NCBI GenBank assembly: GCA_003223835.1
Contig: QHWR01000042.1
Location: 1 to 12,943 of the forward strand
Direction: 5' to 3'
DNA from: Acidobacteriota bacterium
GTDB taxonomy: Bacteria > Acidobacteriota > Vicinamibacteria > Vicinamibacterales > 2-12-FULL-66-21
DNA: 12,943 nucleotides
The notes below the pieces were generated by a model. The model ran no database searches, was not told the origin of the DNA, and saw nothing but the letters and a program-made list of their open reading frames with translations. Positions 1 to 12,943 of this stretch are shown piece by piece. A program made the translations under genes and the position numbers. The first letter of the stretch is position 1, and each line of letters begins with the position of its first letter.

Positions 1-107
1 AAATAAAAGCCGCCCGACGCGGTGACCTCGACGACGATGAGCGCAAGACCGGCGGCGCCAGCCAGTGCCACCACTCCAATGTCATGGAACGGCGGTCATT
101 GTAATGC

Positions 108-136
108 CGAATGGCGACCCTCGACAGCGATCAGGG
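108..136. other. Small inverted repeat (GGCGACCCT ... AGGGTCGCC, 9-bp stem with an 11-nt loop) flanked by direct CCGAATG(G/C) motifs in the 5' leader region
   Basis: Read directly from the sequence: ccgaatggcgaccctcgacagcgatcagggtcgccgaatgcc. There is no convincing ORF in 1-298, where all six frames are Arg/Ala-rich and look like off-frame GC noise. Confidence 0.3.
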
Positions 137-298
137 TCGCCGAATGCCGAAAGCGACCGCGCGTGAGCAGCGTCCGCCCGGGCTGCACGTTCGTGATCGG
201 CGGCACGAAACTGTCGCCGGCCGCCGGCGGAACCCGTCGAAGACGGCGCGCGCGCCGCGCGAGAGGTCGGCAGCGTTCTTGCCCTCGCCGGCGCGTCC

Positions 299-1582
299 AT
301 GTCACGCGGTCGCATCGTCCTGCGTGTGGTGCTCGGCGGCCTCGTGGCGGCCATGGCGCTGTTCGTGTGCGCGGTGTTGGTCGCGCCGCTCGTGGCCCGC
401 GCGATCGCGCTGTCGCAGGCGGCGACCGGCTCGGGACGCGCCCGCCCGCTGCCTGCGGGCTACCGGCCGCTGCACAAGGGTCACATCGATATGGGGACGG
501 GACTCTACGTGCGGGAAGACGAAGATCTCGCGCTCCCCGGGAGCCCGTCGTTCGTGCTGCGCCGGACGTATCGGACCCGCGACTCGCGGTCGCGCGCGTT
601 CGGGATCGGCGGCTCGCACACCGGCGACTGGTTCCTCGTCGGCGACAGCAGGACGTTCCAGTGGGCCGACGTGATCCTCGAAGATGGCGGACGGATCCAT
701 TACGAGCGCACGTCGAGCGGCACGGGCATCTCGAACGCCCGCTACAAGCACCGGGCGACGCCATCGTCCTTCTACGGATCGGAGCTCGCGTGGACCGGCG
801 CGGACTGGATGGTGCGGCAGCGCGACGGCACGGTCCTCACCTTCCGCGCATGCAGTCCGGCCAGCGGGAACTGCGCCATCACGAGCATTCGGGAACCCGA
901 CGGACAGATTATCCGCTTTGCGCGCGACGCGGAAGGGACGCTGATGCGCATCGACGCCGGCGCGCAGTGGATCGCGTTCGATTACGGCGGGGGCCGACGC
1001 ATCGCGCGCGCGCGAGACAACGCGGGTCACGCGGTTGCCTACACGTACGACGCACGAGGCCGGCTGCGGCAGGCGCTCGAGTCGGACGGGACGAAGCGCT
1101 CGTACGACTACGACGACCATGACCGTCTGACCCGGATCGAGGAACCGGGCCGCATCGTGGAAAACCGCTATGACGCCGCGGACATGTGCGTGTGGCAGCG
1201 CGTGCGCTTTCCGGCCGGCCCGCCGCACGGCGTCCCCGCCGACGATGAGCCGGACATCTTCCAGTTCTCGTACGTGATGGAAAACGGACGCGTCCGTCAG
1301 GTGGACACACACGAATCGAACGCGCCGAGCCATCGGTGCGTGTTCACCGTGCACGGCCACCTGGAGTCGGAGACCTACGACTTCGACACCGTCCGCGCGA
1401 AGACGATCACGTACCAGCGCGACCCGGGGACGGGCCTGGTGAGCGGCCTCACGTTGATGTGCGGGAGCGGCCGGTGGCGCGCGTCACGGTCGCTGCCCGC
1501 CACTCCCCGCACACAGCCCCGGGTGAAGGCGGAGCTGCTCGCGATGCCCTGCGATCTCGCCGGCGACAAGCGCATCCGCTGA
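299..1582 (+). CDS. YD-repeat / RHS-family protein (short, 427 aa) with an N-terminal hydrophobic anchor or signal
   Basis: The N-terminus MSRGRIVLRVVLGGLVAAMALFVCAVLVAPLVARA is a TM/signal segment. Downstream motifs LPGSPSFVLRRTYRTRDSRSRAFGIGGSHTGDW, AYTYDARGRL and RSYDYDDHDRLTRIEEPGRIVENRYD are characteristic of the RHS/YD repeat region (the YD-x-x-GRL and xYxYDxxxRL patterns). The codon composition looks coherent, unlike the overlapping frames. The C-terminal ~40 aa (RWRASRSLPATPRTQPRVK...) is Arg-rich, so the true end may be affected by a frame error. The protein is much shorter than canonical Rhs proteins. Confidence 0.6.
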   Translation: MSRGRIVLRVVLGGLVAAMALFVCAVLVAPLVARAIALSQAATGSGRARPLPAGYRPLHKGHIDMGTGLYVREDEDLALPGSPSFVLRRTYRTRDSRSRAFGIGGSHTGDWFLVGDSRTFQWADVILEDGGRIHYERTSSGTGISNARYKHRATPSSFYGSELAWTGADWMVRQRDGTVLTFRACSPASGNCAITSIREPDGQIIRFARDAEGTLMRIDAGAQWIAFDYGGGRRIARARDNAGHAVAYTYDARGRLRQALESDGTKRSYDYDDHDRLTRIEEPGRIVENRYDAADMCVWQRVRFPAGPPHGVPADDEPDIFQFSYVMENGRVRQVDTHESNAPSHRCVFTVHGHLESETYDFDTVRAKTITYQRDPGTGLVSGLTLMCGSGRWRASRSLPATPRTQPRVKAELLAMPCDLAGDKRIR

Positions 1583-1623
1583 GCCACGGGACACAGGGGC
1601 ACTTCGACCGGCCTCCGGCCGCG

Positions 1624-1800
1624 GATCACACGGACGGCCACGGACCGACGAGGGATCGTCAGCCACCGATCACACGGACGGGCCACGGACCGACGAGGGA
1701 TCTTCAGCCGCCGATCACACGGACGGGCCACGGACCGACGAGGGAACTTCAGCCGCGGCCCACACGAATGGCCACGGGCCGACGCAAGATCTTCAGCGCA
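1624..1800. repeat. Tandem repeat, ~45-bp unit x4 (copy 1 is 44 bp, copies 2-3 are 45 bp, copy 4 is degenerate); consensus gatcacacggacgggccacggaccgacgagggatcttcagccgcc
   Basis: Copies at 1624-1667, 1668-1712, 1713-1757 and 1758-1800 are head-to-tail with a few substitutions. The motif cacacggacg recurs once more at ~1803-1812. The array lies downstream of the YD-repeat gene stop. Confidence 0.9.
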
Positions 1801-1852
1801 TAACACGGACGCTCGCGACGCTGTACGCAATTCCTTATTTACTGATCCGTGT

Positions 1853-2008
1853 ACTTCCGTGTAATCCGTGGCTAAACGTTCCGTGTAATCCGTGGCTAAA
1901 CGTTCCGTGTGATCCGTGGCTAAATGTCCCGTGCGATCCGTGACTAGATCCTCCGTGGGATCCGTGGCCAAATGTCCGTACCGATTCGCGGCAAGGCCCT
2001 GCGGTTGC
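1853..2008. repeat. Tandem repeat, 24-bp unit x5-6 (ccgtgtaatccgtggctaaacgtt), degenerating toward the 3' end; core ATCCGTG(G)
   Basis: Units at 1867-1890 and 1891-1914 are identical. Units at 1915-1938, 1939-1962 and 1963-1985 are progressively diverged. Partial copies flank the array (1853-1866 and 1986-2008). The array sits directly upstream of a TATAAA box and the 2094 gene start. Confidence 0.9.
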
Positions 2009-2019
2009 ATTTTCCGGCG

Positions 2020-2093
2020 GCGGCAGCTATAAACCATTACCCTCGGCATCATCTGTGGAGACGGCCCGCCCGAGGCGGGCAGTGAGGATGGCA
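2020..2093 (+). promoter_or_regulatory. Putative promoter and RBS region for the small secreted protein (TATAAA at ~2027-2032; GAGG at 2084-2087)
   Basis: cagcTATAAAccatt lies ~60 bp upstream of the ATG, and gtGAGGatggcaATG places GAGG 6 nt before ATG 2094. This is sequence inspection only. Sigma-70-like consensus elements are weak in such GC-rich genomes. Confidence 0.3.
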
Positions 2094-2552
2094 ATGAGAC
2101 GAGCACTCGCGCTTGTGACGGCGGCCGTTCTGATCGGCGGCGCGCAGCCAGCCCTGGCGGTGTCGACGCCGACGATCAACGCCGTCACCTCGGGGATCGA
2201 GCTGTGCCCGCAGACCGTCTGCGGCGCGGCGATCTTCGCCGGCGTGCTGAAAGGTCAGGTCGGATCGAACCTCAACGCGCTGGGACTGTTCGCGGTCGCG
2301 GTCACGCACGAACCCCTGCCGGATCCGTTCCAATCCGCCGCGATCACCGGCGGCGTGTTTCAGTTCCAGGTCGGCCTGCGCCAGATCAAAGGCGTCGTGC
2401 TGGGGGGCACGCTGTTCAACAACGGCGACAACACGTTCACGGTGCGCGCCGTTCTCGGGATCACGAGTGGCGGCAGCGGACAGGTGATCTACACGGGCCT
2501 GCTGAACCACAACGTCTTCCCGCCGACCGTGATCGGGACGTTGACGCAGTAA
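2094..2552 (+). CDS. Small secreted hypothetical protein (152 aa) with a cleavable signal peptide; Gly/Val/Thr-rich with two Cys
   Basis: MRRALALVTAAVLIGGAQPALA-VSTP is a classic signal peptide ending in AxA. The ORF track starts the ORF at GTG 2055. I prefer ATG 2094 because of the GAGG spacing and because the signal peptide begins immediately. The stop TAA is at 2550-2552. I recognise no family motif. Confidence 0.6.
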   Translation: MRRALALVTAAVLIGGAQPALAVSTPTINAVTSGIELCPQTVCGAAIFAGVLKGQVGSNLNALGLFAVAVTHEPLPDPFQSAAITGGVFQFQVGLRQIKGVVLGGTLFNNGDNTFTVRAVLGITSGGSGQVIYTGLLNHNVFPPTVIGTLTQ

Positions 2553-2561
2553 GACGAAATA

Positions 2562-2632
2562 CCAAATGCTAAATGCCAAAGAGACCCTGATTCGGATCCC
2601 TTTTGGCATTTGTCATTTGGCATTTGGCATTG
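2562..2632. terminator. AT-rich hairpin between convergent genes; arms built from heptamer tandem repeats (CCAAATG/CTAAATG versus TGGCATT x4)
   Basis: The left arm ccaaatgctaaatgccaaa (2562-2580) is near-perfectly complementary to tttggcatttgtcatttgg (2602-2620), giving a ~19-bp stem with 1-2 mismatches and a 21-nt loop. The right arm continues with two more TGGCATT units through 2632. It lies between the stop of the 2094 gene (2552) and the stop of msrA (2636). The local AT-richness is exceptional for this window. Confidence 0.6.
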
Positions 2633-2635
2633 ACG

Positions 2636-3286
2636 CTAGGTCTTTACAGCGACGCCCACCGGACAGCTCACCCCCGTGCCGCCGAGGCCGCAGTAGCCGG
2701 CCGGATTCTTCGCCAGATACTGCTGGTGGTAGTCCTCCGCGTAGTAGAACTCCGGCGCGTCGACGATCTCGGTCGTGATCCGGCCGTAGCCGGCGGCGGT
2801 CAGCATCCGCTGATACGCGTCGCGCGAGCGTTCCGCCGCGTCGCGCTGCGCCGGGGAGAAGACGTAGATCCCGGATCGATACTGCGTGCCGGCGTCGTTC
2901 CCCTGCCGCATGCCCTGTGTGGGATCGTGACTCTCCCAGAACACCTTCAGCAGATCGTCGTAGGAGATCTTGTTGGGATCGAACACGACGAGGACGACTT
3001 CCGCGTGTCCCGTCATGCCGCTGCACACCTCGCGGTACGTCGGATTCGGCGTGATCCCGGCCGCGTAGCCGACCGCCGTCGTATAGACGCCGGGGAGCTG
3101 CCAGAACTTGCGCTCCGCCCCCCAGAAGCAGCCGAGCCCGAACATCGCGCGCTCGAGCCCGGAGGGAACCGTCCCCTGCAGCGGCGCGTCGAGCACGTAA
3201 TGCTTCGCCGGCACCGGCATGCGATCGTCGCGCCCCTTCAACGCCTGTTCGCGCGTGGGCATCTTCAGCTTGTTTTCGAACATCAT
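2636..3286 (-). CDS. msrA: Peptide methionine sulfoxide reductase A (MsrA)
   Basis: The translation contains the MsrA active-site signature GLGCFWGAE plus [12 protein letters not shown] and [10 protein letters not shown], and full length is consistent with MsrA. I chose ATG 3286 (MMFENKLK...) as the start. The ORF track's 18-aa N-terminal extension (start 3340) is encoded entirely by the heptamer repeat array and overlaps the upstream gene's stop. Confidence 0.9.
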
Positions 3287-3291
3287 GTTTT

Positions 3292-3327
3292 CTGCCTTCC
3301 TGCCTTCTGCCTTCTGCCTTCTGCCTT
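3292..3327. repeat. Heptanucleotide tandem repeat (CTGCCTT)x5 on the + strand, i.e. (AAGGCAG)x5 on the minus-strand mRNA, in the 45-nt spacer between the zinc-ribbon/TM gene stop and the msrA start
   Basis: The + strand reads tctgccttcctgccttctgccttctgccttctgccttccg. On the minus-strand transcript this is a purine-rich run of AAGG(C)AG units ending 5 nt before the msrA ATG. Confidence 0.9.
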
Positions 3328-3332
3328 CCGCA

Positions 3333-4427
3333 TTACCCATTCCCCTGCGCCAGCAGGAAGATGATGATCAGGATGATCACGCCCAGCACGATCAGCGCGA
3401 TTTTCCACGGGCTCTTCGGGTACTGCCCGGCCATCCGCCCGCTGTGGCCGTTCACGATCAGCTGATAGACCTTCGCGGCGTACGTGTACGTCAGCAGCCA
3501 GACCGGCACCAGGATGTGCTTGAACGTCTGGCCCGAGTACGTCGGTTGGATCTGCAGGTTGCGAAACGTGTCGCCCGGAATCTGCGCCGCGCAGAGATCG
3601 TAGAGCTTGCGCGTCATCTGCTCCTGCGACGCCTTCGCCGCGTCGAGCAGCACCACCTGGTAGTGCTCGACGATGAAGCCGGACAAGTACGCCGTGTCGT
3701 ACGGCGTCAGCTCGTTCGTCATGAACGGCTCCACCTGTCTCAGCAGCGCCTGGGAGACGCCGTGCGTCCCCGGCACCGGCTCGTCGTCGAAGAAATGACG
3801 CACGACGCCGGACGCGGGTTCCCAGCGGACCTGCCGTACCTGGCGCGTCTGCGTGCGGCCGCCTTCCATGTACGACTCGGTCGTGTAGTAGTAGTGGCCC
3901 GCTTCCGCGTTCCACGGACAGACGACTTGCGCGTCAAACGTCCAGTACGGGATGTAGACGCCCCGCACCGTATCCACGAGCGCGCGCGTTTTGAGCGAGC
4001 CGGGCGCGAGCCACTTGCTTTTGTACCACCGGCGGATCTGTTCGCGCACGGTGCTTTCCGGCACCTTGAACGGGAGCAGACTCTGCGGCCGGATCGGCGC
4101 CTTGATTTCCTGGTAATCCACCAGCTCCGGCGATCCGCAGAATTCGCAGCGCTGGCCGACGCGCGCCGGATCGAACACCGACACCGCCTTGCAGCTCCGG
4201 CACTGCACGGTCCGCCGCTCGACTTGCCAGCCGCGCGCCTCGTCGGGCAGTTCTCGCAGCGCTTTCACGAGATCCAGCTCGACGATCGCGCCGGCCTGCG
4301 TCACGTCGTACGGCGCTTCCGTGCCGCAGAACGGACAGACCAGCTTCTGCTTGCCCGGATTCCATTCAGCCTGCGCGCCGCAGGCGGGACAGGGATGTTT
4401 CTCGATCGCGGAAACGGGGTCGGGCAT
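3333..4427 (-). CDS. Double zinc-ribbon protein with a C-terminal transmembrane helix (function unknown)
   Basis: N-terminal [23 protein letters not shown] and [24 protein letters not shown] give two CxxC...CxxC zinc ribbons. A ~250-aa central domain follows. The C-terminus [20 protein letters not shown] is a TM helix. The start lies 14 nt after the stop of the SPFH gene on the same strand, suggesting co-transcription. Composition is coherent and not Arg-biased. Confidence 0.7.
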
Positions 4428-4441
4428 TTAAACCGAGAACC

Positions 4442-5470
4442 CTATTTCGACAGATATTCATCCAGCGCCGACCGTTTCACGCGCCAGGATGTGCCGATCT
4501 TCTTCCCCGCCAGTTCACCCGACTGAAGAATCGTCATGACGTCGGATTCGGGAACGCCCAGCGCCTTGGCGACGTCGGCGGGCGACAGCAGCTCCCCGGT
4601 CGCATCCCCGGGCGCCGCGGCGGGCGCCGGCGCCTTGACGGCGACGCCCGCGACGCCTCCCTGCTGCTGCATGATCTGCTGCGCGATCGACAGGCCGACG
4701 GCCATCTCGGTCGCCATGCCGCCCGCCGAGCCCCCGCGCTCCATGCCTTGCGCCATCTGGAATTTCACGTAGTCGTTCAGGTTCCCGATCGCGGCCATGC
4801 TGGATCGCTTGTCGATCGCCGTTTCGACCTCCGCCGGCACCGACACGTTCTCGACGACGAACGTGGGCATCTCGATCCCGTACTTCGCGGTGATGACGGG
4901 GTTGATGAGCGGCAGCAGCGCCTGCCCCAGTTCCGAGTAGCGCTGCGCGACGTCGAACACGGGAATCTTCGCCGTCGCGATCGCCTCGGAAAAGACGCTG
5001 ACGACGCGGGATCGCATCGTATCGGCGAACTCGTCGAGCCGGAAGTTCTGATCCGATCCGGCGACCTCTTTCAGGAACAGCTTCGGGTTCGTGATGTGGA
5101 AGTCGTACGTGCCGAACGCGCGCGCGCGGACGACGCCCAGCTCCTGGTCGTGCATCATCACCGGATTCGCCGTGCCCCACTTGTTGCCGGTGAACAGCCG
5201 CGTGTTGAGGAAGTACACGTCCGCCTTGAACGGCGAGTTGAAGCCGTACTTCCAGGATTTCAGCTTGGTCAGGATCGGAATGTTGTCCGTCGTCAGCGTG
5301 TGCTTCCCCGGCCCGAACGTGTCGCCGAATTCGCCGAGGACGATGAGCTGCGCGCCGTTCTTGATCGCTTTGTCATCGTCGGGGAATCGAAACGAGAGCG
5401 TATCGCGCGAGTCGTCGGTCCATTCGATGACGTCGATCAGCTCGCCCTTGATGAAGTCCATCAAACCCAT
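4442..5470 (-). CDS. SPFH/band-7 superfamily protein (YdjI / COG4260-like) fused to a C-terminal excisionase-type helix-turn-helix domain
   Basis: The N-terminus MGLMDFIKGELIDVIEWTDDSRDTLSFRFP matches my memory of the conserved start of COG4260 ('virion core protein'-annotated) SPFH proteins. The C-terminus LLSPADVAKALGVPESDVMTILQSGELAGKKIGTSWRVKRSALDEYL fits the excisionase/HTH_17 pattern (L..ee.A..LgvS..tv.....G.lp..kiG...r..r..L.e.l). A Gly/Ala/Gln-rich linker lies between them. I chose ATG 5470, which has GGAG 9 nt upstream. The track's start at 5563 would add 31 aa encoded by the upstream heptamer repeat. Confidence 0.7.
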   Translation of the reverse strand: MGLMDFIKGELIDVIEWTDDSRDTLSFRFPDDDKAIKNGAQLIVLGEFGDTFGPGKHTLTTDNIPILTKLKSWKYGFNSPFKADVYFLNTRLFTGNKWGTANPVMMHDQELGVVRARAFGTYDFHITNPKLFLKEVAGSDQNFRLDEFADTMRSRVVSVFSEAIATAKIPVFDVAQRYSELGQALLPLINPVITAKYGIEMPTFVVENVSVPAEVETAIDKRSSMAAIGNLNDYVKFQMAQGMERGGSAGGMATEMAVGLSIAQQIMQQQGGVAGVAVKAPAPAAAPGDATGELLSPADVAKALGVPESDVMTILQSGELAGKKIGTSWRVKRSALDEYLSK

Positions 5471-5485
5471 GGTGAAAACTCCGAT

Positions 5486-5580
5486 CGGACAGATGGCGGA
5501 TGGAAGATGGTGGATGGCGGAACGGCGGCTGATAGGGGCATCGGATTTTCCGTCATCCGCCATCCGTCATCCGTCATCGG
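5486..5580. promoter_or_regulatory. Divergent intergenic region containing inverted arrays of heptamer tandem repeats: (GATGGCG/GATGGAA/GATGGTG/GATGGCG) versus (TCCGTCA/TCCGCCA/TCCGTCA/TCCGTCA)
   Basis: cagatggcggatggaagatggtggatggcggaacgg (5490-5525) and ccgtcatccgccatccgtcatccgtcatcgg (5550-5580) are imperfect reverse complements, each made of about four 7-bp units, separated by ~25 nt. The region lies between the SPFH gene start (5470) and the multi-zinc-ribbon gene start (5608). An AT-rich stretch aactagtatcgtattctaaactgagcc (5581-5607) directly precedes the + strand ATG and may be a promoter or leader. Confidence 0.7.
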
Positions 5581-5607
5581 AACTAGTATCGTATTCTAAA
5601 CTGAGCC

Positions 5608-6330
5608 ATGGCCCAGAGCGCCGGAAGCCTGCATTGTCCCAACTGCGGGGCGCCCGCGGCGGCGGCCGACGGGCGGTGTCCGTACTGCCGCGCGCGGCTG
5701 GCGACGGTGAGTTGTCCCTCGTGTTTCGGGCTGTTGTTCGAGGGCGCGGCGTACTGCCCGCACTGCGGCGCCCGGCGCGAGCGGCGCGCGGTCGGCGAGC
5801 CGGCCGGCGCCTGTCCCGCCTGCCGGAAGACACTCGCCCGGGTCGACGTCGGCTCCGCCACGCTGTTCGAGTGCGAGGGCTGCGACGGGATCTGGCTCGA
5901 CGCGGAGGGCTTCGAGAAGCTGTGCGCCGACCGCGAAGCGCAGGCGGCGGTCCTCCATCGCATCACCGCCCTCCCGCACGCGGCGACGGGGCCGGTCCGC
6001 TATCGCCCGTGCGTGCGGTGCGGCAAGCTCATGAACCGCGTGAACTTCGCGAAGGCGTCAGGCGTGATCGTGGACGTCTGCCGCGGGCACGGCACGTTCC
6101 TCGACGCCGGGGAGCTGCACCAGATCGTCACGTTCATCCACGGCGGCGGGCTCGATCGCGCGCGCGAACGCCAGCTCGAAGACCTGGCCGAACAAGAGCG
6201 CCGCCTCCGATCGCTCCAGAACGTTCAGCAGCGCACCGAGATGGACATGGGAGGCCTGTCCATCGAATTCAGCCGCGGGACGCACGTGCTGTCCTTCGAA
6301 CAGCTACTGCGGCATTTATTCGAATCCTGA
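5608..6330 (+). CDS. Multi-zinc-ribbon protein: two N-terminal CxxC pairs plus two zf-TFIIB-like (PF13453-type) zinc-ribbon modules
   Basis: CPNCGAPAAAADGRCPYC and CPSCFGLLFEGAAYCPHCG are zinc ribbons. CPACRKTL...CEGCDGIWLDAEGFEKL and CVRCGKLMNRV...VDVCRGHGTFLDAGELHQIV each match the zf-TFIIB-like pattern C..C.....[5-10]...C..C.G.WLD.gEl. The C-terminal ~50 aa is charged, helical and probably coiled-coil. The stop TGA is at 6328-6330. Confidence 0.75.
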   Translation: MAQSAGSLHCPNCGAPAAAADGRCPYCRARLATVSCPSCFGLLFEGAAYCPHCGARRERRAVGEPAGACPACRKTLARVDVGSATLFECEGCDGIWLDAEGFEKLCADREAQAAVLHRITALPHAATGPVRYRPCVRCGKLMNRVNFAKASGVIVDVCRGHGTFLDAGELHQIVTFIHGGGLDRARERQLEDLAEQERRLRSLQNVQQRTEMDMGGLSIEFSRGTHVLSFEQLLRHLFES

Positions 6331-6333
6331 TCG

Positions 6334-6361
6334 GTTCGGGGTTCGACCCCGAACCCCGAAC
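6334..6361. terminator. GC-rich hairpin (12-bp perfect stem gttcggggttcg/cgaaccccgaac with a 4-nt loop ACCC) between convergent genes; each arm consists of two heptamers
   Basis: Read directly: gttcggggttcg-accc-cgaaccccgaac. It sits between the zinc-ribbon gene stop (6330) and the msrB stop (6362). There is no U-tract on either strand, so it may act as an RNA-stability or Rho-dependent element instead of a canonical intrinsic terminator. Confidence 0.6.
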
Positions 6362-6763
6362 TCATTTCGGCTCGAATCTCAGCGCGATGCCGTTGATGCA
6401 GTAGCGTTGCCCCGTCGGCGGCGGGCCGTCGGGGAACACGTGACCGAGATGGCTGCCGCACCGGGCGCAGTGCACTTCGGTCCGCGTGCCGTAGCTCCGA
6501 TCCACGGTCTCGCCGATCGCGCCCGCCGTCGGCGCATGGAAACTTGGCCAGCCGGTGCCCGAGTTGAACTTCGTGTCGTTCGTGAAGAGTTCCTGTCCGC
6601 AGCCCGCGCAATAGAACGTGCCGGCGCGCTTCTCGGTGTTCAGCGCGCAACTGCCCGGACGTTCCGTCCCGTGCTCGCGCATGATGTGGTACTGCTCGGG
6701 CGTCAGCATGCGCCGCCACTCTTCCTCCGTCCGCTGGACGGGGAACGTCTCCGTTTTGTTCAT
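6362..6763 (-). CDS. msrB: Peptide methionine sulfoxide reductase B (MsrB/SelR), zinc-binding type
   Basis: CAGCGQELF...[11 protein letters not shown] and [35 protein letters not shown] carry the MsrB signatures: two CxxC zinc-binding pairs, the GWPSF motif and the catalytic RYCINS-like motif. AGGA lies 8 nt upstream of the ATG. The start is 12 nt after the asmA stop on the same strand. Confidence 0.9.
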
Positions 6764-6774
6764 CGGCTGGTCCT

Positions 6775-8367
6775 CTAATCCTTCGACCCGAACACGCGGC
6801 CGACATCGAGACCGAACTTCGGGTCCTTCCGCATGCCGTTGATCTTAATCGGAACGACGGCCCCCGCGCCGTTCTTCCGAAACAACGGGTCGACGGCCTT
6901 CAGCAGCAGGCGCTTGACGCCGGTCGTGCCGGTCGCTTCGGAGATCGGCGCCTGCATCCGGAGCGTGCCGGCGAAGTCGAGCGCCTCGCTCCGCAGCGCA
7001 TACGTGCCCGCGAGCGTGATCTCCGCGCCCGGGACCCCGAACTGAAGGTTCGCGAACCGCACCACTCCGTTGCCCATCGTGAATCGCCCGCGCATGTCCG
7101 ACAGCACCCGGCCTACCGGCTCGTCTTTCTGCTTCCCTTGCCCGTGGCGGCTGAGATCGGTGATCTTGCGCTGCACTTCGGCGTCCGTGAATCGTGCGTC
7201 GTCCACGGCGAACGTCCCGTCGAGACGCAGGCGATCGGCGACCTTGCGGTGTTCCGGCGGCAGCACCAGCTTCGTCTTCATCGTCAGGCGTCCCTCCATC
7301 ACGGCCTTGGAGGACTTGACCGCGAGCTTCAGCACGTCTTCGACGCGCCCCTTCGGCATCACGACGTCGAGGTCGACGGTGCGGCCGTGGCCATGCGGCC
7401 CGCCGACGATCGCGCCGCGCGCGGTCAGCGACGTCTGGAGAAACTGCGCGTCCACCTGTTCGAGGTACGTGTCGCCGTTCGTGCCGTCCACGATGGCGCG
7501 AAAACGCGTGTCGAGCGGCACGCCCTGTCCCGCGACGTCTACGCTGAAGTCCGGTGTCTTCGTGGTGCCGTTGACGCGGATTCGCTCGAGCCGGCCGTAG
7601 AAGTTGCCTTTCGACGACAACGTCCCGCCCAGACCGTCGATCGTGTTCAGGTCCGCGTGGGTGAAGTCGTACTTGCCGTCGAGCGGCGAAGATCCGGGGC
7701 CGTCCGCGATCCACGGGCCGAACGTGCCGGTCGTCTCGATGTCGCCGCGCGGGATCGGATTGGTCAGCGTCGCCCGAAACGGCATGCGTCGATCGAAACC
7801 CAGCGAGTCGACGCGGAGATGATGAATCGTGAAACGTTTCGGTTCCCTTCCGGACTGCTTCGGCAGAATCGTCAGGACCGCATCGTCCGAGACGAGATGG
7901 TCGATGAGGACGGGGCCCTGCCGATCGGGTTCTTTGCCGCGCGCCCCGTCCTTGTCGTTGTCGTTGTCCTTGTCCTTGTCGTCCTCGTGCCGGTTCAGCC
8001 CGCCCGGCGGGATGTTGATGCGCAGCCCTTCCAGCATGACGCTCCTGAACCGCCGCGGCCGATGGAGAAGGCCGAGCACTCCGCCTTCCGCATAAAAATG
8101 CTTCACTTCGATCAATGGCGGGCCGCCGGTCTGACGCTTGTGGTGGACGCGCAGGCCGTCGCCCGTGATGCTCAGCGTCGGAAAGGTCGAGACGTGAAAG
8201 CTTTCCAGCTCGACGCGGGCGTCGAGGTGTTGACTCATCGCGTCGAGAAGTGCCGCGTTGAGGACGCTGGTGCGGGAGCCGCCGACGGCGACGATCCAGA
8301 GCGTGACGAGCACGCCGCCGAAGATGGCGATGAACCACCGCGCAACGCGCAGAGCGGGTTTACGCAC
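6775..8367 (-). CDS. AsmA-family outer-membrane biogenesis protein (530 aa) with an N-terminal TM anchor
   Basis: N-terminus [30 protein letters not shown] is a TM anchor. A large, soluble, beta-rich periplasmic region follows, with the general architecture and Gly/Asp/Thr-rich composition of AsmA-like proteins. An internal low-complexity [11 protein letters not shown] run is encoded by a hexamer DNA repeat at ~7948-7988. The family call rests on overall architecture and on remembered N-terminal similarity. Confidence 0.65.
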
Positions 8368-8539
8368 TACCTGATCACTGCAAGACGCGTGCTGGAAAAC
8401 CAGGACTCATTACTGTCGCGCTGTTCGGTCGAGGCCGGGCCGTCGTTGATCTAATGGCGCACCGGGGAGGGCCGAGGTGTAGTAACTCCGGCGCACCCAT
8501 CAGCCTACAGTCATCGACGTCGCCGGAGGAGGCGAGGCC

Positions 8540-10510
8540 ATGGCTAGAAGTCAGGTCTTTGTCAGCTACAGCCACAAGGACGCGAAGTGGCTGGGCGAGC
8601 TGAAGAAGTTTCTTACGCCTCTCGTTCGGGACCAGCCGATCGAAATCTGGGAGGACACGAAGCTTCGCGCCGGCGACAAGTGGCTGCCGGGGATCGAAGG
8701 CGCCCTGAGCTCCGCGAAGGTCGCGGTGCTCCTCGTCAGCGCGAATTACCTCGCGTCGGACTTCATCGCGTCCCGCGAAATGCCCCCCATCTTCGAGGCG
8801 CAGACGCGAGAGGGGCTCCGGATCATCTGGATCCCGATCAGCGCCAGCGCGTACGCCGTGACGCCGATCAAGAACTTTCAGGCCGCGTCCGACCCCGCGC
8901 GGCCGCTCGATACGTTCACGGCCGCCAAACGCAACCAGCTCTGGGTGGAGATCTGCGACGCGATCGTCGAGGCGATGGAGCTGCCGGCGGCCGCTGCTGA
9001 AACCCCGGTCGAGGACGATGGTCCGGTCGAAGACCGAGTGGTGCTGCTGTACAAACGCGGCGCCCAGCCCGACGAACAGCTGCTCCACGCGCTCGAGACC
9101 GAGCTTGGCAGGCGCGGGGTTCCTGTGTGGATCGATCGGCACCTGCGCGTCGGGATGGATTGGGCGCGCGCGATTTCCGACCGCCTCGAACGGGCGGTGG
9201 CCGTGATCCCGCTGCTTTCCGCGCAGTCGGTGCACAGCGAGATGCTGTCCTACGAAGTGCAGGTCGCGCATCAGGCTCGGCAGCGCAACGGCGGCCGTCC
9301 GAAAATCCTGCCGGTGCGCGTCCAGTTCGACGACGCCCTCGTGTCGCCGCTCGACATTCTCAGTCCGCTGCAGCACGCGGTGTGGACGGGCGGTCAGGAC
9401 ACGCCGCGCGTCATCGCCGAATTGAACGCCGCCCTCGCGGCGGAGTCGCACGAGATTCCGCGCTACGTCCCGCCGGTCGGCGGCGCCCTGCCGCTCGACG
9501 ACGAGTTCTACATCGCGCGGCAGGCGGATACGGATCTGGCCGCGGCGATCCGGCGGAAGGAAAACATCATCCTGCTGAAGGGCGCGCGTCAGATGGGCAA
9601 GACGTCGCTGCTCATCCGCGGCTCGAAAGAAGCGCGGACGGCGGGCGCCCGCACCGTCTACATCGACTACCAGAAACTGAACCTCACGCAGCTCGTGTCG
9701 CTCGACGTGTTCTACCGCAGCCTCTGCGAGTGGCTGGCGGAGGAGCTCGAGCTCGAGGTGAGCGTCGAGTCCTTCTGGAACACGCGGCGCACGGCGAACA
9801 TGAACTTCGAGCGGTTCCTCGAGCGCGAGCTGCTCCCCCGGGTGGGCGGCCACTTCGTTCTCGCGATGGACGAGACGGACCGGCTGTTCGACTTTCCTTT
9901 CAAGGACGAGTTCTTCGGCCTGCTGCGGTCCTGGTACAACGAACGCCAGATGAACCCGGACTCGGCGTGGCGGCGCATGACGATCCTGATTGCCTACGCG
10001 ACGGAGCCGCACCTGTTCATCTCGAACCTGAGTCAGTCGCCGTTCAACGTCGGCCTGGCGCTCGATCTGGCGGACTTCACGCCCGAACAGACCGGGCGGA
10101 TGAACCAGCTATACGGGAGTCCTCTGACCGCGCTGTCAAAGGTCACGTCGTTCCACAACCTGGTGGGAGGGCAACCGTATCTCGTCAGGCGCGGCCTGTT
10201 CGAGATCCGCACGAAGAACTACTCCATCGAGCAGTTCGAGGAGCTCGCCGTCAAAGACGATGGACCGTTCGGCGATCATCTGCGCCGCATGCTCGTCGTC
10301 CTCGCCCGCAATCCGCCGCTCTGCGAGGCGATGCGGGAGCACCTGCGCACGCGCCGGACCGTCGCGACCGCGGACTTCTACCGCCTGCGGCGCGCGGGCA
10401 TTCTGGTCGGCGGGAGTCCGCTGGAAGCGAGGCCGCGCTGCCGTTTGTACGCCGAGTACCTGCAGCGACATCTGGACGCGGTCCAGAGCGCCGCGACCGT
10501 CGCGGGGTGA
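8540..10510 (+). CDS. Tandem TIR domains fused to an AAA_35-type (PF14516-like) P-loop NTPase domain
   Basis: GGAGGAGG lies 8 nt upstream of the ATG. TIR domain 1, VFVSYSHKDAKWLGELKKFL...IWEDTKLRAGDKWLPGIEGALSSAKVAVLLVSANYLASDFIASREM, matches the bacterial TIR_2 pattern (FISYsh.D......L...L......W.D...l..G......I..ai..s...i.lvS..y..S.wc..E). A second TIR-like module runs ~VVLLYKRG...VWIDRHLRVGMDWARAISDRLERAVAVIPLLSAQSVHSEMLSYEV. The NTPase region has Walker A ILLKGARQMGKTSLL, Walker B FVLAMDETD, and the family-typical C-terminal GGQPYLV motif. Confidence 0.8.
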   Translation: MARSQVFVSYSHKDAKWLGELKKFLTPLVRDQPIEIWEDTKLRAGDKWLPGIEGALSSAKVAVLLVSANYLASDFIASREMPPIFEAQTREGLRIIWIPISASAYAVTPIKNFQAASDPARPLDTFTAAKRNQLWVEICDAIVEAMELPAAAAETPVEDDGPVEDRVVLLYKRGAQPDEQLLHALETELGRRGVPVWIDRHLRVGMDWARAISDRLERAVAVIPLLSAQSVHSEMLSYEVQVAHQARQRNGGRPKILPVRVQFDDALVSPLDILSPLQHAVWTGGQDTPRVIAELNAALAAESHEIPRYVPPVGGALPLDDEFYIARQADTDLAAAIRRKENIILLKGARQMGKTSLLIRGSKEARTAGARTVYIDYQKLNLTQLVSLDVFYRSLCEWLAEELELEVSVESFWNTRRTANMNFERFLERELLPRVGGHFVLAMDETDRLFDFPFKDEFFGLLRSWYNERQMNPDSAWRRMTILIAYATEPHLFISNLSQSPFNVGLALDLADFTPEQTGRMNQLYGSPLTALSKVTSFHNLVGGQPYLVRRGLFEIRTKNYSIEQFEELAVKDDGPFGDHLRRMLVVLARNPPLCEAMREHLRTRRTVATADFYRLRRAGILVGGSPLEARPRCRLYAEYLQRHLDAVQSAATVAG

Positions 10511-10516
10511 TCGCCC

Positions 10517-12604
10517 ATGCTGACCTATTCCGATCGGATCACGCCCTTGCGGGCCGCGGACAACGCGTTCTTCATCACCGGCGGCACGCTCAGCCCCGGC
10601 GCGGCGAGCTACGTCGAGCGCGCGGCCGATTCGCAGTTGTACGACGTGCTGCTGCGGATGGACTTCTGCTACGTCCTCGACACCCGCCAGATGGGCAAAT
10701 CGTCGCTCATGGCCCGCGCGGCGCATCGCCTGCGCACCTACGCGAACTTCTCGGTCGCGACGATCGATCTGAGCGGGCTCGGACAGACCGTTTCCGCGGA
10801 CCAGTGGTACGACTCGCAGCTCGTCTCGATTGGGAAGGCGCTCAACCTGCAGCGCGAGCTGGAGGAATTCGCGGACGCACACGACCGCCTGGCCCCGCTC
10901 GATCGCTGGAAGCGCGCATTTACCGAGGTCCTGCTGCCCCGGATCGAGACGAACCTCGTCGTTTTCGTCGACGAGATCGACTACGTGCGCAGCCTGCCGT
11001 TTTCGACCGACGAGTTTTTCGCCGGCATCCGCGAGTTCTACAATCGCCGTCCGTTCGAACCGGAGTTCAACCGACTGACCTTCTGCCTGCTTGGCGTCGC
11101 GACCCCTTCGGATCTCATTCGATCGGACGAGACCACCCCGTTCAATATCGGCCGCCGGATAACGCTCACCGACCTCTCGGAAGAGGACGCGGGCATCGCC
11201 GTCCTGCAGACGGGGCTGTCGCGTGACGACCGCGTCGGGCGCGCGATGTTGCACCGGGTCCTCCATTGGACGGGCGGACACCCGTACCTGACGCAGCGGC
11301 TCTGCGAGGAAGCGACCAGGATCGGCCGCGACGGCAAACGGGCGTATACGTCCGACGCGCACGGCGTCGATGCCGCGTGCCACACCCTCTATTTGTCGAA
11401 GAGCGCGCGCGACCAGAACGACAACCTGCGATTCGTCGCCAAGCGGATCGAGGAGTCGGCGAATCCCGTGGAGGCGGTGTCGCAGTACGCGCGGATCCGC
11501 CGCGGCGAGAAGGTCCGCGGGACGGGAACAGAACCGTGGGTCGACGTCCTGCGCCTCAGCGGGATCGCGCGACTCGTGGGCAACGAGCTCGAGGTCAGGA
11601 ACGAGATTTACCGGCGCGTCTTCGACGAGGCGTGGATCGAAGCGAACCTCACGCCCGACGAGCTGCTCCGGCAGCGCCACGCCGCGCGCGATGCGCGGCG
11701 GCGCACGCTGACATATATGACCGCCGTCGGCGCGGTGCTGGCGCTGTTGGTGCTGACGCCTCTCAGTTTTCTCTTGTACTCGAAGAATCGCACATTGGAT
11801 TCCCAGCAGCGGAGCTTGGTGGACGTGACCCAGATGCTCCGACACAGGACGGCCGACCTGCAGGAGCAGCGCGACCGTCAGGCGGACACCAACAGGCAAC
11901 TCGCCGCAGCCGGAAAGGCCAAAGACGCGGCCCTGGCAGAGGCGAACCGTCGCGCCGTCGAAATCGCGCGTCTGAAGCAACAGGTCGAGACGCAGAAGGA
12001 CACCGAGCTGCGCGATCAGTGGAGTCTGTTCAGCTCACGCGACCTGGCCAACGCGTCCCGGTTCGAGCGAATGCGTCAGCCGGGTTTCATCACCGGAAGT
12101 CTGCTGCTCAGCATCGAAGCCGCCGGACGGAGTCCGAGCGCGCCTGCGTACACCGCGCTCGTCGAAGCCATGCAGCTCGCGGCGCCTCGCGTCGGAACAT
12201 CGCACCCGTGGCAAATTCAGACGGGCAGCGTCGGCGCGGCGCTGAGCGGGTCACGCCGCTACATCGCGATGTGGAACGCGGCAGAAGGCATGTGCGTCCA
12301 CAACACCGACACTCCCGGGACCGTCGCGTGTGTGCCTCTCAATGACGCATCGCGCGGTGCCGTGGACGACAACGGCAACCGGACATCTGCAATGCGTGCC
12401 CAGAGGACGCGAGCCTGTCCCGTGCGCCGGCGCGCCCGACGCGATCGCCAAGCCCATCTTCAGCACGGACGGGAAGTATGTCGGCTGGCTCTCGGGCACG
12501 GGGTCGAACCAGCTGCACATCCTGGACCTGGCGACGGGAAGCCCGGCCGACGTTTCCGATCTGAACGCGCTGCTGCCCCGCGAACAAGAGACCGGCTCGC
12601 CTGA
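10517..12604 (+). CDS. AAA_35-type NTPase, then a single TM helix, a long coiled coil and a beta-propeller-like C-terminal region (paralogue of the upstream gene's NTPase domain); the 3' end is disrupted by an apparent frameshift
   Basis: Walker A YVLDTRQMGKSSLMARA, Walker B LVVFVDEID and the family motif HWTGGHPYLTQRL are present. The TM helix is TYMTAVGAVLALLVLTPLSFLLY. It is followed by ~90 aa of Q/R/E/A-rich coiled coil, then IAMWNAAEGMCVHNTDTPGTVACVPLNDASRGAVDDNGN. From ~12400 the annotated frame turns into Arg-rich noise (RTRACPVRRRARRDRQ...) up to the stop at 12602-12604, so the last ~200 nt of this ORF are probably not the real frame. The start is 6 nt after the TIR gene stop, suggesting translational coupling. 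Confidence 0.7.
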   Translation: MLTYSDRITPLRAADNAFFITGGTLSPGAASYVERAADSQLYDVLLRMDFCYVLDTRQMGKSSLMARAAHRLRTYANFSVATIDLSGLGQTVSADQWYDSQLVSIGKALNLQRELEEFADAHDRLAPLDRWKRAFTEVLLPRIETNLVVFVDEIDYVRSLPFSTDEFFAGIREFYNRRPFEPEFNRLTFCLLGVATPSDLIRSDETTPFNIGRRITLTDLSEEDAGIAVLQTGLSRDDRVGRAMLHRVLHWTGGHPYLTQRLCEEATRIGRDGKRAYTSDAHGVDAACHTLYLSKSARDQNDNLRFVAKRIEESANPVEAVSQYARIRRGEKVRGTGTEPWVDVLRLSGIARLVGNELEVRNEIYRRVFDEAWIEANLTPDELLRQRHAARDARRRTLTYMTAVGAVLALLVLTPLSFLLYSKNRTLDSQQRSLVDVTQMLRHRTADLQEQRDRQADTNRQLAAAGKAKDAALAEANRRAVEIARLKQQVETQKDTELRDQWSLFSSRDLANASRFERMRQPGFITGSLLLSIEAAGRSPSAPAYTALVEAMQLAAPRVGTSHPWQIQTGSVGAALSGSRRYIAMWNAAEGMCVHNTDTPGTVACVPLNDASRGAVDDNGNRTSAMRAQRTRACPVRRRARRDRQAHLQHGREVCRLALGHGVEPAAHPGPGDGKPGRRFRSERAAAPRTRDRLA

Positions 12605-12943
12605 CTCGCTCACACGGTCCTCCGCCCCCGGCGAAACCGCGGCGGCCGATGACTCGCCGGAGTTGTTGCAGGTCGGCGATGGCGGGAGGTACGCGCTGCT
12701 GGCGGCGCGAGACTCCGTCTGGATCTACCGAGTCGGCTCGGACACCGTCGCGCGCGCACCGGACGCGACCGCGCTGCTGGTGAGTTCGCCCGATACGGGG
12801 GAGAGCCTGCTCGCCACGCCGCGAGGACTGTGGTCGCTGACCGCCGCGGCGAAAGGCCTCGCGCTTGCAAAATCACCGACGACGGCGTTCGAGGACAGGG
12901 CGGGAATCGGCCGTTATGACGCCAACGATCCGTGGCTGCCGAT
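12342..12943 (+). CDS. +1-frame continuation, or a separate downstream ORF; beta-propeller-like C-terminal segment, 3'-partial (runs off the window)
   Basis: The frame ≡0 mod 3 is open from 12246 to the end of the window. It reads ...APDAIAKPIFSTDGKYVGWLSGTGSNQLHILDLATGSPADVSDLNALLP...DSVWIYRVGSDTVARAPDATALLVSSPDTGESLLATPRGLWSL, with protein-like composition and propeller-blade-like motifs (xDGKYVxW, LxxxDxxTGS). The first ATG in this frame is at 12342. This is most simply the true C-terminus of the 10517 gene after a +1 shift near 12340-12420. Confidence 0.4.
   Translation, partial: MTHRAVPWTTTATGHLQCVPRGREPVPCAGAPDAIAKPIFSTDGKYVGWLSGTGSNQLHILDLATGSPADVSDLNALLPREQETGSPDSLTRSSAPGETAAADDSPELLQVGDGGRYALLAARDSVWIYRVGSDTVARAPDATALLVSSPDTGESLLATPRGLWSLTAAAKGLALAKSPTTAFEDRAGIGRYDANDPWLP

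Follow-up and report, generated by a model that had tools for sequence, protein, structure and literature searches.

A gene pair of paralogous AAA_35 NTPases, one fused to two TIR domains and one with a membrane helix, as a possible two-subunit STAND-like switch

Bacterial, plant and animal immunity all make central use of STAND/NLR-type switches that carry TIR effectors, and those characterised in bacteria are, to our knowledge, each one cytosolic protein that binds a protein of the phage. In the plant TIR-NLRs the TIR serves as executor domain, and in paired or helper-sensor plant NLRs (RRS1/RPS4, the NRC network) a sensor and an executor work together through homologous nucleotide-binding domains. 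Animal Toll-like receptors have an extracytoplasmic repeat ectodomain, a single transmembrane (TM) helix and a cytoplasmic TIR domain that signals through induced proximity. A 2026 survey of STAND proteins gives 589 clades. A two-gene arrangement is described for nSTAND2 (Kaur, Burroughs, Iyer, Aravind 2021, PMC8195603), a mobile operon with the STAND core in both proteins and a variable effector on one of them, for which a hetero-multimeric ring is predicted and in which the effector-bearing gene has eroded NTP-binding motifs.

The locus described here is found in a stretch of 12,943 nucleotides, below called the window, which is positions 1–12,943 of the forward strand of contig QHWR01000042.1 (assembly GCA_003223835.1, Acidobacteriota bacterium). 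Gene 1, encoding the A subunit, is an ORF at 8540..10510 on the + strand with a GC3 of 0.88 and a Shine-Dalgarno-like GGAGGAGG upstream of its ATG. The product of 656 aa gives two Pfam TIR_2 matches followed by AAA_35, as a first reading of the sequence only had proposed, and the HMM search that this reading had suggested as a check supports both assignments in the window with scores above the thresholds. AAA_35 (PF14516), with a Pfam gathering threshold of 27 bits, scores 260 bits, and the NTPase module spans residues 315–642 (9482..10465, +) with Walker A at 9581-9607, Walker B at 9857-9880 and a GGxPYLVRR motif at 10166-10192, all on the + strand. The structure predicted by AF2 has a mean pLDDT of 84. 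The peak hydropathy is 1.39 in a 19-residue window, and gene 1 is therefore expected to lack a TM helix and to encode a soluble protein.

The TIR region has HMM matches above threshold (PF13676/PF01582) and the flavodoxin-like TIR fold. TIR domain 1, residues 5–150 (8552..8989, +), is matched by a ThsB-type TIR model of PADLOC over residues 5–152 (E 2.8e-20), and residues 5–104 match solved TIR domains when searched with a profile built from 23 homologues. Its candidate catalytic Glu80 (8777-8779, +) is kept in at least 90% of 23 TIR-TIR homologues. TIR domain 2, residues 166–300 (9035..9439, +) with the best Pfam TIR_2 stretch at residues 176–285, is the TIR common to the homologues examined, and has its candidate catalytic Glu239 at 9254-9256 (+). 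This residue is identical in all 82 gene-1-type sequences, as are S227, S233 and M235, and E234 is found in 81 of the 82. The resulting motif S-x5-S-EMLxYE presumably fits the catalytic-Glu position of TIR NADases, and a Glu at the start of helix alpha-C, assigned by motif, is thus present in gene 1. Since this Glu and the surrounding motif are invariant, an enzymatic role of TIR2 can be argued, and we infer a candidate TIR activity of the A subunit from this one conserved Glu.

Gene 2, encoding the B subunit, starts 6 nt downstream of gene 1 and was called as an ORF at 10517-12604 (GC3 0.82), of which residues 1–621 (10517..12379, +) are the intact in-frame part. It is an AAA_35 NTPase without TIR, as had been proposed, with a Pfam score of 76.9 bits and the module at residues 20–380 (10574..11656, +), containing Walker A (10682-10708, +), Walker B (10958-10981, +) and a GGHPYLTQR motif (11273-11299, +). 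A basic juxtamembrane motif, residues 382–400 (ELLRQRHAARDARRRTLTY), and a single TM helix, residues 401–421, follow at 11660..11779 (+), and after these comes a long helix or coiled-coil-like stalk, residues 424–505 (11786..12031, +). The membrane anchor and long helix of the sequence-only reading are borne out by a hydropathy of 2.27 across residues 402–420 and by the AF2 model, where residues 380–505 form one helix with a pLDDT of only 50–60 in the stalk. The stalk keeps a constant heptad register in which 50–75% of the a and d positions are hydrophobic.

The same reading had taken gene 2 as one open frame to 12943 with a propeller-like C-terminus. The frame does not run through, as the in-frame reading stops at 12604, and a global alignment together with direct reading shows that 20 bp (GTGGTGGTGCAGGCCGGCGA) are missing at 12379..12380 (+) compared to the near-identical contigs L001 and L002. 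After the deletion the propeller-like residues are thus found in the +1 frame from 12381, and an open frame supported by GC3 continues for 187 codons (12381..12941, +) as the start of a repeat or propeller-like ectodomain that runs off the window. The GC3 signal changes frame near 12.1–12.3 kb. The tail of the called ORF at 12380..12604 (+), Arg/Ala-rich with a stop at 12602-12604, is out of frame, missing from the intact allele and not real protein sequence. The propeller-like part of gene 2 is in another frame than believed, and Pfam detects no propeller inside the window and no domain at all in the +1-frame C-terminal piece. In the orthologue P0121, 99% identical, the WD40 matches are at residues 935–1166, beyond the window end, and full-length orthologues of gene 2 have 1650–1673 aa, so that only a part of the gene is in the window.

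The frameshift might have arisen in the assembly or the consensus of a mixed metagenomic population while the organism itself has an intact gene, a quite possible explanation that we nevertheless lean against. In its favour, the 20 bp are present in two further assemblies of this locus, and the deletion is flanked by the near-repeats GGCAACG and GGCGACG, a setting prone to slippage and to errors of a mixed-strain consensus. On the contig L001, which is 99.3% identical to the window, gene 2 is intact. The in-frame part differs from L001:4970-6832 by 7 synonymous and 4 non-synonymous codons and the +1-frame part from L001 and P0121 by 5 and 2, which gives 12 synonymous against 6 non-synonymous substitutions in gene 2. 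L002, however, has other lesions, with gene 1 interrupted by a nonsense mutation at codon 23 and gene 2 lacking 76 nt that correspond to 11531-11606 of the window. Of the three near-identical alleles two are thus damaged, and a real decay in the population is plausible. If the deletion is real, the copy in the window would yield a B subunit without its sensor.

Relatives of the locus were sought in one genome per species over 185,579 GTDB species, which gave at least 509 confirmed relatives, and the best 80 of more than 509 loci by score were analysed, a sample that is therefore biased to close relatives. A protein library contains 2,758 clusters of the family (50% identity, E<=1e-30). The sequence-only reading had proposed the co-occurrence of the two genes as a check, and a B-type AAA_35 gene lies directly downstream of the TIR-AAA_35 gene on the same strand in 58 of the 72 assessable species-level GTDB loci, from several phyla. 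A B-type gene is located within about 2.5 kb in 64/72 and none that near in the other 8. The seven independent TIR-TIR loci examined have the pair without exception, three of three independently picked B-type homologues have a kinase-(TIR)-AAA_35 gene upstream, and the pair is also plasmid-borne in Tolypothrix sp. PCC 7601 (WP_263420184.1 and WP_045874702.1) and in an Abditibacteriota isolate. The spacing between A and B is tiny or the genes overlap by 4–8 nt. Identity across loci is about 50% within each AAA_35 subtype and about 30% between the two, and none of the 82 A-type and 57 B-type sequences has a damaged Walker A or B. The window itself has an A-type TIR-AAA_35 gene, the 6-nt gap and a B-type AAA_35 gene with the TM helix at residues 401–421. 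Judged by these comparisons the pair is a conserved module of two distinct AAA_35 subtypes, one that recurs over hundreds of genomes of soil bacteria. Some loci, for example L090, have two A genes beside one B. The locus L075 appeared to be a single-ORF A-B fusion of the "Rosetta stone" kind, and was rejected because tblastn had read through a stop codon at 10447-10449.

Tandem paralogues could also work independently, gene 1 as a TIR-NTPase that lacks a sensor and is regulated constitutively, gene 2 as a membrane NTPase in its own right. Both have complete Walker motifs and could form homo-oligomers, and besides the 8/72 loci without a near B gene there is one locus with two tandem A-type genes and no B. 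We regard this as highly improbable, as order and adjacency are kept across several phyla despite the low identity between subtypes, the gaps are very short or the genes overlapping, and the architectures are complementary. Sensor-type variable domains (WD40, TPR, PEGA/CarboxypepD_reg, PAS-GAF) are found on the B type only, and TIR and other output-type domains on the A type only. This distribution, with the subtypes adjacent across phyla, agrees with the earlier idea of a split effector and sensor, and with modest confidence we favour a STAND-like ATP switch of two subunits as the product of the locus, B being the sensor in the membrane and A giving the TIR output.

A TM helix directly after the NTPase is present in 55 of 58 B partners, two of the exceptions ending at contig ends, and is preceded by a conserved motif E-(L/V)-RRQRAAYRRG. 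K and R are richer on the N-side of the helix in 45 partners and on the C-side in one, with 9 ties, and PEGA and CarboxypepD_reg domains are found after the helix. The helix in 55/58 partners together with these domains indicates that the sensor should be outside the cytoplasm, a topology derived from hydropathy, domain types and the positive-inside rule. Among STAND sensors, however, WD40 and TPR repeats are more usual in cytosolic ones. In one distant pair the TM helix is absent and the PAS-GAF sensor cytosolic, so that membrane anchoring is not universal.

A classical cytosolic antiphage abortive infection system of the Avs/TIR-NLR kind, split over two genes, would have repeats that bind a phage protein and TIRs that deplete NAD+ so that the infected cell dies. 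This is quite improbable considering the strongly hydrophobic helix that parts ATPase from sensor in nearly all partners and the PEGA and CarboxypepD_reg domains that follow it. The genomic context does not favour it either, in a coarse comparison of 128 neighbouring ORFs from 16 loci without a formal background model. The best 25 of 82 PADLOC families by ORF count were each matched by no more than 3 of these ORFs and are kinase-type or generic models; the ORFs come from a crude GC3-based caller, and with only the best 25 families considered rare matches may have been missed. The best 25 Pfam families likewise show no recurrent partner or defence gene in the pair neighbourhoods, which are varied and include housekeeping genes, and a single distant relative was found among 2.9 million viral contigs of IMG/VR. 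Gene 2 has no match in PADLOC-DB v2.0. For the antiphage role suggested earlier no defence-island signal is seen in these neighbourhoods, and kinase and cyclase are the commonest extra outputs of the family.

Those outputs bear on another explanation, that the pair serves ordinary outside-in signalling and not conflict, with the B ectodomain sensing a cue from the environment or the envelope and A relaying it by phosphorylation, cNMP synthesis or an NAD-derived messenger, and TIR2 being an assembly scaffold or a messenger synthase and no killer. The N-terminal domains of the A subunits are Ser/Thr kinase in 40/71, class III cyclase in 18/71 and TIR in 5/71, variants with SARP/BTAD also occur, and PAS-GAF sensors are present in the distant pair mentioned above. 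At one locus an ECF sigma factor gene overlaps the start of the kinase-AAA_35 gene. The neighbourhoods are varied and non-defence, and the large family (the 2,758 clusters) is found in soil phyla with big signalling repertoires. We nevertheless consider it rather unlikely, since the TIR2 Glu and its surrounding motif are invariant, two TIR domains are the only output in the subtype of the window, and the ECF link is seen in one case only. Predicted conflict systems moreover have sets of effectors in which kinases, cyclases, TIR and TCAD9 are found side by side (PMC7159879, PMC8195603). The biological role could be either an envelope-triggered conflict or stress response, or signalling.

For the two-subunit switch that we favour the following mechanism may be proposed. 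B would be a single-pass membrane protein with its AAA_35 ATPase in the cytoplasm, joined by the TM helix and the helical stalk to a large repeat ectodomain outside the cytoplasmic membrane, probably of WD40 type in the lineage of the window. The A subunit would be soluble and sensor-less, with two TIR domains ahead of the paralogous ATPase. Binding of a cue to the B ectodomain could be relayed along the helix to the B ATPase, which might then assemble with A subunits through the homologous ATPase modules, and this assembly could cluster the TIRs and turn on NAD+ cleavage or the synthesis of an NAD-derived signal. The output of this core in sister systems would be a Ser/Thr kinase or nucleotide cyclase in place of TIR. 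A generalisation to widespread bacterial outside-in receptors, in which an ectodomain acts through a helix and a STAND-like ATPase on a paralogous ATPase with TIR, kinase or cyclase outputs, is tentative and on balance doubtful.

The locus of the window is one member of a large uncharacterised family of paralogous sensor and effector ATPase subunits in which the sensor is predicted to cross the membrane. If the generalisation is true, it would amount to a split, ATP-gated version of Toll-like-receptor logic with a mechanism other than that of two-component, ECF/anti-sigma or receptor-kinase signalling, by which a TIR enzyme could answer envelope events, among them the adsorption of a phage, a contact-dependent attack or damage to the envelope. 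If the two-subunit model is right, the family would also offer a natural test bed for signal transfer between two STAND modules, for a STAND switch that reads an extracytoplasmic cue and for one core that drives TIR, kinase or cyclase outputs. Experiments should be feasible because the cyanobacterium Tolypothrix sp. PCC 7601, which has a related pair on one of its plasmids, is in culture.

By fold both ATPases resemble archaeal Arch_ATPase, Orc/Cdc6 and STAND proteins, the best matches being the Arch_ATPase-type archaeal proteins 2qen and 2fna, with solved TIR-NLRs also among the matches. A sequence search of the PDB found no solved AAA_35 relative, only TIR relatives. The P-loop of the STAND class, Walker A and a Walker B of the form hhhhDE, is invariant in the 82 A-type and 57 B-type sequences, but an effector and a repeat sensor do not flank one NTPase as in STAND proteins, the TIR being in gene 1 only and the repeats in gene 2 only. 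Gene 1 matches only TIR models in PADLOC-DB v2.0, plus a marginal PDC-S01 at E about 1e-3, neither gene has an NCBIfam model, and a full-text literature search on AAA_35 or membrane-linked STAND proteins gave no description or name of the pair. By these searches it is unnamed, as had been said, but not without precedent, since nSTAND2 (PMC8195603) is a two-gene STAND operon.

The Avs and TIR-NLR defence proteins (PMC13581612) likewise combine an effector at the N-terminus, which is TIR here, with a STAND-like P-loop NTPase in the middle, large WD40/TPR repeat sensors and a presumed logic of oligomerisation on ligand. The GxP-type motif and the helical/winged-helix extension, an arrangement also found in CED-4, NB-ARC and MalT, may be shared as well. 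The present locus differs in that effector and sensor are split over two paralogous NTPase subunits, the NTPase is AAA_35 and not NACHT or NB-ARC, a TM helix is located between sensor and NTPase, and PADLOC matches are limited to TIR, with no defence-island signal in the neighbourhoods of the 16 loci. With nSTAND2 it shares, by architecture and motif state, an adjacent two-gene NTPase operon with the effector on one protein, but here the NTP-binding motifs are intact in both genes. TIR1 resembles the ThsB TIR of Thoeris (ThsA/ThsB; model PDLC00420, E 2.8e-20), but the TIR is fused to an NTPase, and Thoeris membership was ruled out because no ThsA-type gene (SIR2 or Macro/SLOG) is found among the ORFs of the window. 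The division of labour between sensor and executor recalls the paired plant NLRs by analogy only, the locus here being bacterial, with another NTPase family and a membrane-spanning sensor subunit. A repeat ectodomain, a single TM helix and TIR are likewise the elements of Toll-like receptors, with no homology implied beyond TIR, but in this family a separate protein carries the TIR, with coupling by way of two ATPase modules, and the ectodomain is WD40, TPR or PEGA and not LRR.

Of the ten real genes that GC3 frame analysis picked out in the window, the pair under study constitutes the last two. Gene 1 (8540–10510, plus strand) encodes a protein of 656 aa with two stretches matching the Pfam family TIR_2 (E 2.6e-28), followed by a full-length match to AAA_35 at residues 315–642 (E 3.1e-77). 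An AF2 model built from 23 homologues (mean pLDDT 84) has two flavodoxin-like TIR folds and then the ATPase, so that the tandem TIR plus AAA_35 architecture proposed from sequence alone is borne out, and the unusual Walker A RQMGK[TS]SL and the GGxPYL motif are present as described. In PADLOC, residues 5–152 match a ThsB-type TIR, with further matches to SAVED-TIR and Argonaute-associated TIR models, and no PADLOC model recognises anything outside the TIR parts. Residues S227, S233, M235 and E239 of the second TIR domain are identical in all 82 A-type sequences (gene 1 and its relatives) and E234 in 81 of them, while at least 90% of sequences in the TIR-TIR subfamily keep E80 of the first; judged from these sequences, gene 1 may have TIR activity.

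Gene 2 starts 6 nt past the gene 1 stop and has an AAA_35 match at residues 24–261 (E 1.6e-21) and no TIR domain in Pfam, confirming the second, TIR-less NTPase. Residues 401–421 form a strongly hydrophobic helix (hydropathy 2.27), and a single continuous helix with constant heptad register is predicted for residues 380–505. The membrane anchor and coiled coil of the sequence-only reading thus stand, but its propeller holds by orthology only, since no such domain is detectable by Pfam inside the window and the WD40 matches (residues 935–1166 of a 99%-identical C-terminal orthologue fragment) lie beyond it. That fragment extends gene 2 by 1259 aa from residue 401 and orthologues are 1650 and 1673 aa long, so gene 2 is only partly contained in the window. 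It had also been read as open all the way to the window end; the called frame stops at 12604 after an arginine-rich tail, the GC3 signal switches frame around 12.1–12.3 kb, and plausible repeat-like sequence (IFSTDGKYVGWLS and onward) is in the +1 frame, a frameshift that had been missed.

The same study yielded a 7.7-kb contig (L001, 99.3% identical to the window) that has 20 extra bases (GTGGTGGTGCAGGCCGGCGA) after the equivalent of 12379 and whose gene 2 is uninterrupted for at least 926 aa; the window gene carries a 20-bp deletion at 12379–12380 (plus strand), between the near-repeats GGCAACG and GGCGACG. A third near-identical contig, from an Acidobacteria MAG (L002, GenBank QHWS01000258.1), retains the 20 bp but has a nonsense codon in gene 1 (codon 23, AAG to TAG, L002:1894–1896) and lacks 76 nt of gene 2 (L002:4818). 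Two of the three alleles are hence disrupted, at different sites, and L001 is intact, which could reflect either real recent decay by recurrent inactivation within the population or artefacts of metagenome consensus. Synonymous substitutions outnumber non-synonymous ones in gene 2 (12 versus 6).

Homologues of gene 1 are numerous, with 854 proteins at E≤1e-5 among the candidates tested, 2,758 clusters (50% identity) at E≤1e-30 in 1.84 billion representatives, and at least 509 relatives confirmed by scanning one genome per GTDB species; the core common to those examined is the second TIR domain with AAA_35 (residues ~166–645). The best 80 of these 509 or more GTDB loci, from Acidobacteriota, Verrucomicrobiota, Armatimonadota, Planctomycetota and Chloroflexota among others, were compared with each gene's domains taken separately. 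Their A-type ATPases are ~50% identical to gene 1 and the B-type ~50% to gene 2, with only ~30% identity between the types. Co-occurrence across genomes is seen as direct adjacency, the B type following the A type on the same strand within 304 nt at 58 of the 72 loci whose downstream sequence is long enough. The order is reversed at three further loci, and one each has a convergent arrangement, a single intervening gene, or the partner 2.3 kb off. Gaps within the pair are tiny, or there are overlaps of 4–8 nt. Each of the seven independent TIR-TIR loci examined has a partner gene, three of three independently chosen B-type homologues have a kinase-(TIR)-AAA_35 gene upstream, and the pair is also plasmid-borne in Tolypothrix sp. 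PCC 7601 and an Abditibacteriota isolate. The A/B pair is therefore a conserved module. An apparent A-B fusion at one locus (L075) was rejected as an artefact. Two tandem A-type (TIR-AAA_35) genes are found with one B partner at L090:6887–15947 and with none at L046:8359–11993, which suggests modular combinations of effector subunits.

The extra N-terminal domain of the A type (n=71) is a Ser/Thr kinase in 40 cases, a class III cyclase in 18, TIR in five and TCAD9 in two; SARP variants likewise occur among the homologues, and eight more A-type genes have no N-terminal extension. Both Walker motifs are intact throughout the A and B sequences compared. A strongly hydrophobic helix comes right after the ATPase in 55 of 58 partners (two exceptions are cut by contig ends), preceded by a conserved basic motif E(L/V)RRQRAAYRRG, and the K+R excess is on the N-side in 45, on the C-side in one and tied in nine. 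The helix and its basic flank therefore predict that the ATPase is cytoplasmic and the C-terminus extracytoplasmic. The region past the helix is variable, with WD40 propellers in 16 of 52; others carry TPR, PEGA together with CarboxypepD_reg, or no domain that could be recognised. Since PEGA and CarboxypepD_reg are domains typical of exported proteins, their presence here agrees with that topology. Membrane anchoring, though common, is not found throughout: on plasmid AP024153.1 (L092:6016–10402) a distant pair, lying between two XerC-type recombinase genes, has a B protein that lacks a TM helix and carries cytosolic PAS and GAF domains. The split sensor/effector reading is well supported by comparative genomics, and the B subunit may sense extracytoplasmic signals and hetero-oligomerise with A.

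Divergent from gene 1 is a 530-aa ORF of high GC3 (6775–8367, minus strand) with an N-terminal hydrophobic anchor (hydropathy 2.31) and no match in Pfam, NCBIfam or PADLOC; it recurs in L001 and L002 and was seen beside the pair in no other lineage. The remaining neighbours include MsrA (2636–3340) and MsrB (6362–6763), methionine sulfoxide reductases ~3 kb apart on the minus strand with SPFH, zinc-ribbon and double-zinc-ribbon genes in between. The SPFH protein (4442–5563, minus strand) is an unusual fusion of Band_7_1 and a C-terminal excisionase-type HTH_17, with a weak MAD1-like match. The gene that follows it directly (3333–4427, minus strand) encodes 364 aa with a zinc ribbon at the N-terminus. 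At the other end, where GC is also raised, a 427-aa ORF with DUF6531 and RHS/YD repeats (299–1582, plus strand) is much shorter than the RHS core protein (model of 1261 positions) and is probably a truncated RHS toxin gene or fragment.

The pair may have a role in defence or other conflict; coarse tests gave no support for a defence island, either among the window neighbours or elsewhere. Across 128 ORFs around the pair at 16 loci, the 25 PADLOC families with the most ORF matches are kinase-type or generic models that each match at most three ORFs, and no Pfam family recurs apart from TonB-type outer-membrane barrels, kinases, helicases and transposases. Some surroundings are plainly housekeeping. 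In one case (L087:3123–5971) an ECF sigma gene overlaps the start of a kinase-AAA_35 gene without TIR, followed by an AAA_35-WD40/PQQ partner, a hint that some relatives feed into ECF sigma regulation. The only relative found in IMG/VR is a distant one: a putative viral contig of 12.9 kb (L091, IMGVR_UViG_3300031236_000894) has a TIR-TIR-AAA_35-like gene with 35% identity. The same combination of kinase, cyclase, TIR and TCAD9 domains typifies predicted conflict systems as well (PMC7159879, PMC8195603).

The logic of the pair resembles that of antiviral STANDs (PMC13581612) and of plant sensor/helper NLR pairs. The architecture had been held to match no named defence system, and no name turned up in PADLOC, NCBIfam or the literature searchable outside the 2026 STAND survey's clade tables, but a two-gene precedent exists: the closest published one is the nSTAND2 operon, with STAND modules in both genes and a predicted hetero-multimeric ring (PMC8195603). 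Its effectors are GT4 or HEPN (PMC8195603) and its effector-bearing subunit is catalytically eroded, whereas both AAA_35 proteins keep intact Walker motifs. We rate the pair as a STAND-like NTPase with a TIR output, notable for its membrane-spanning two-subunit design.
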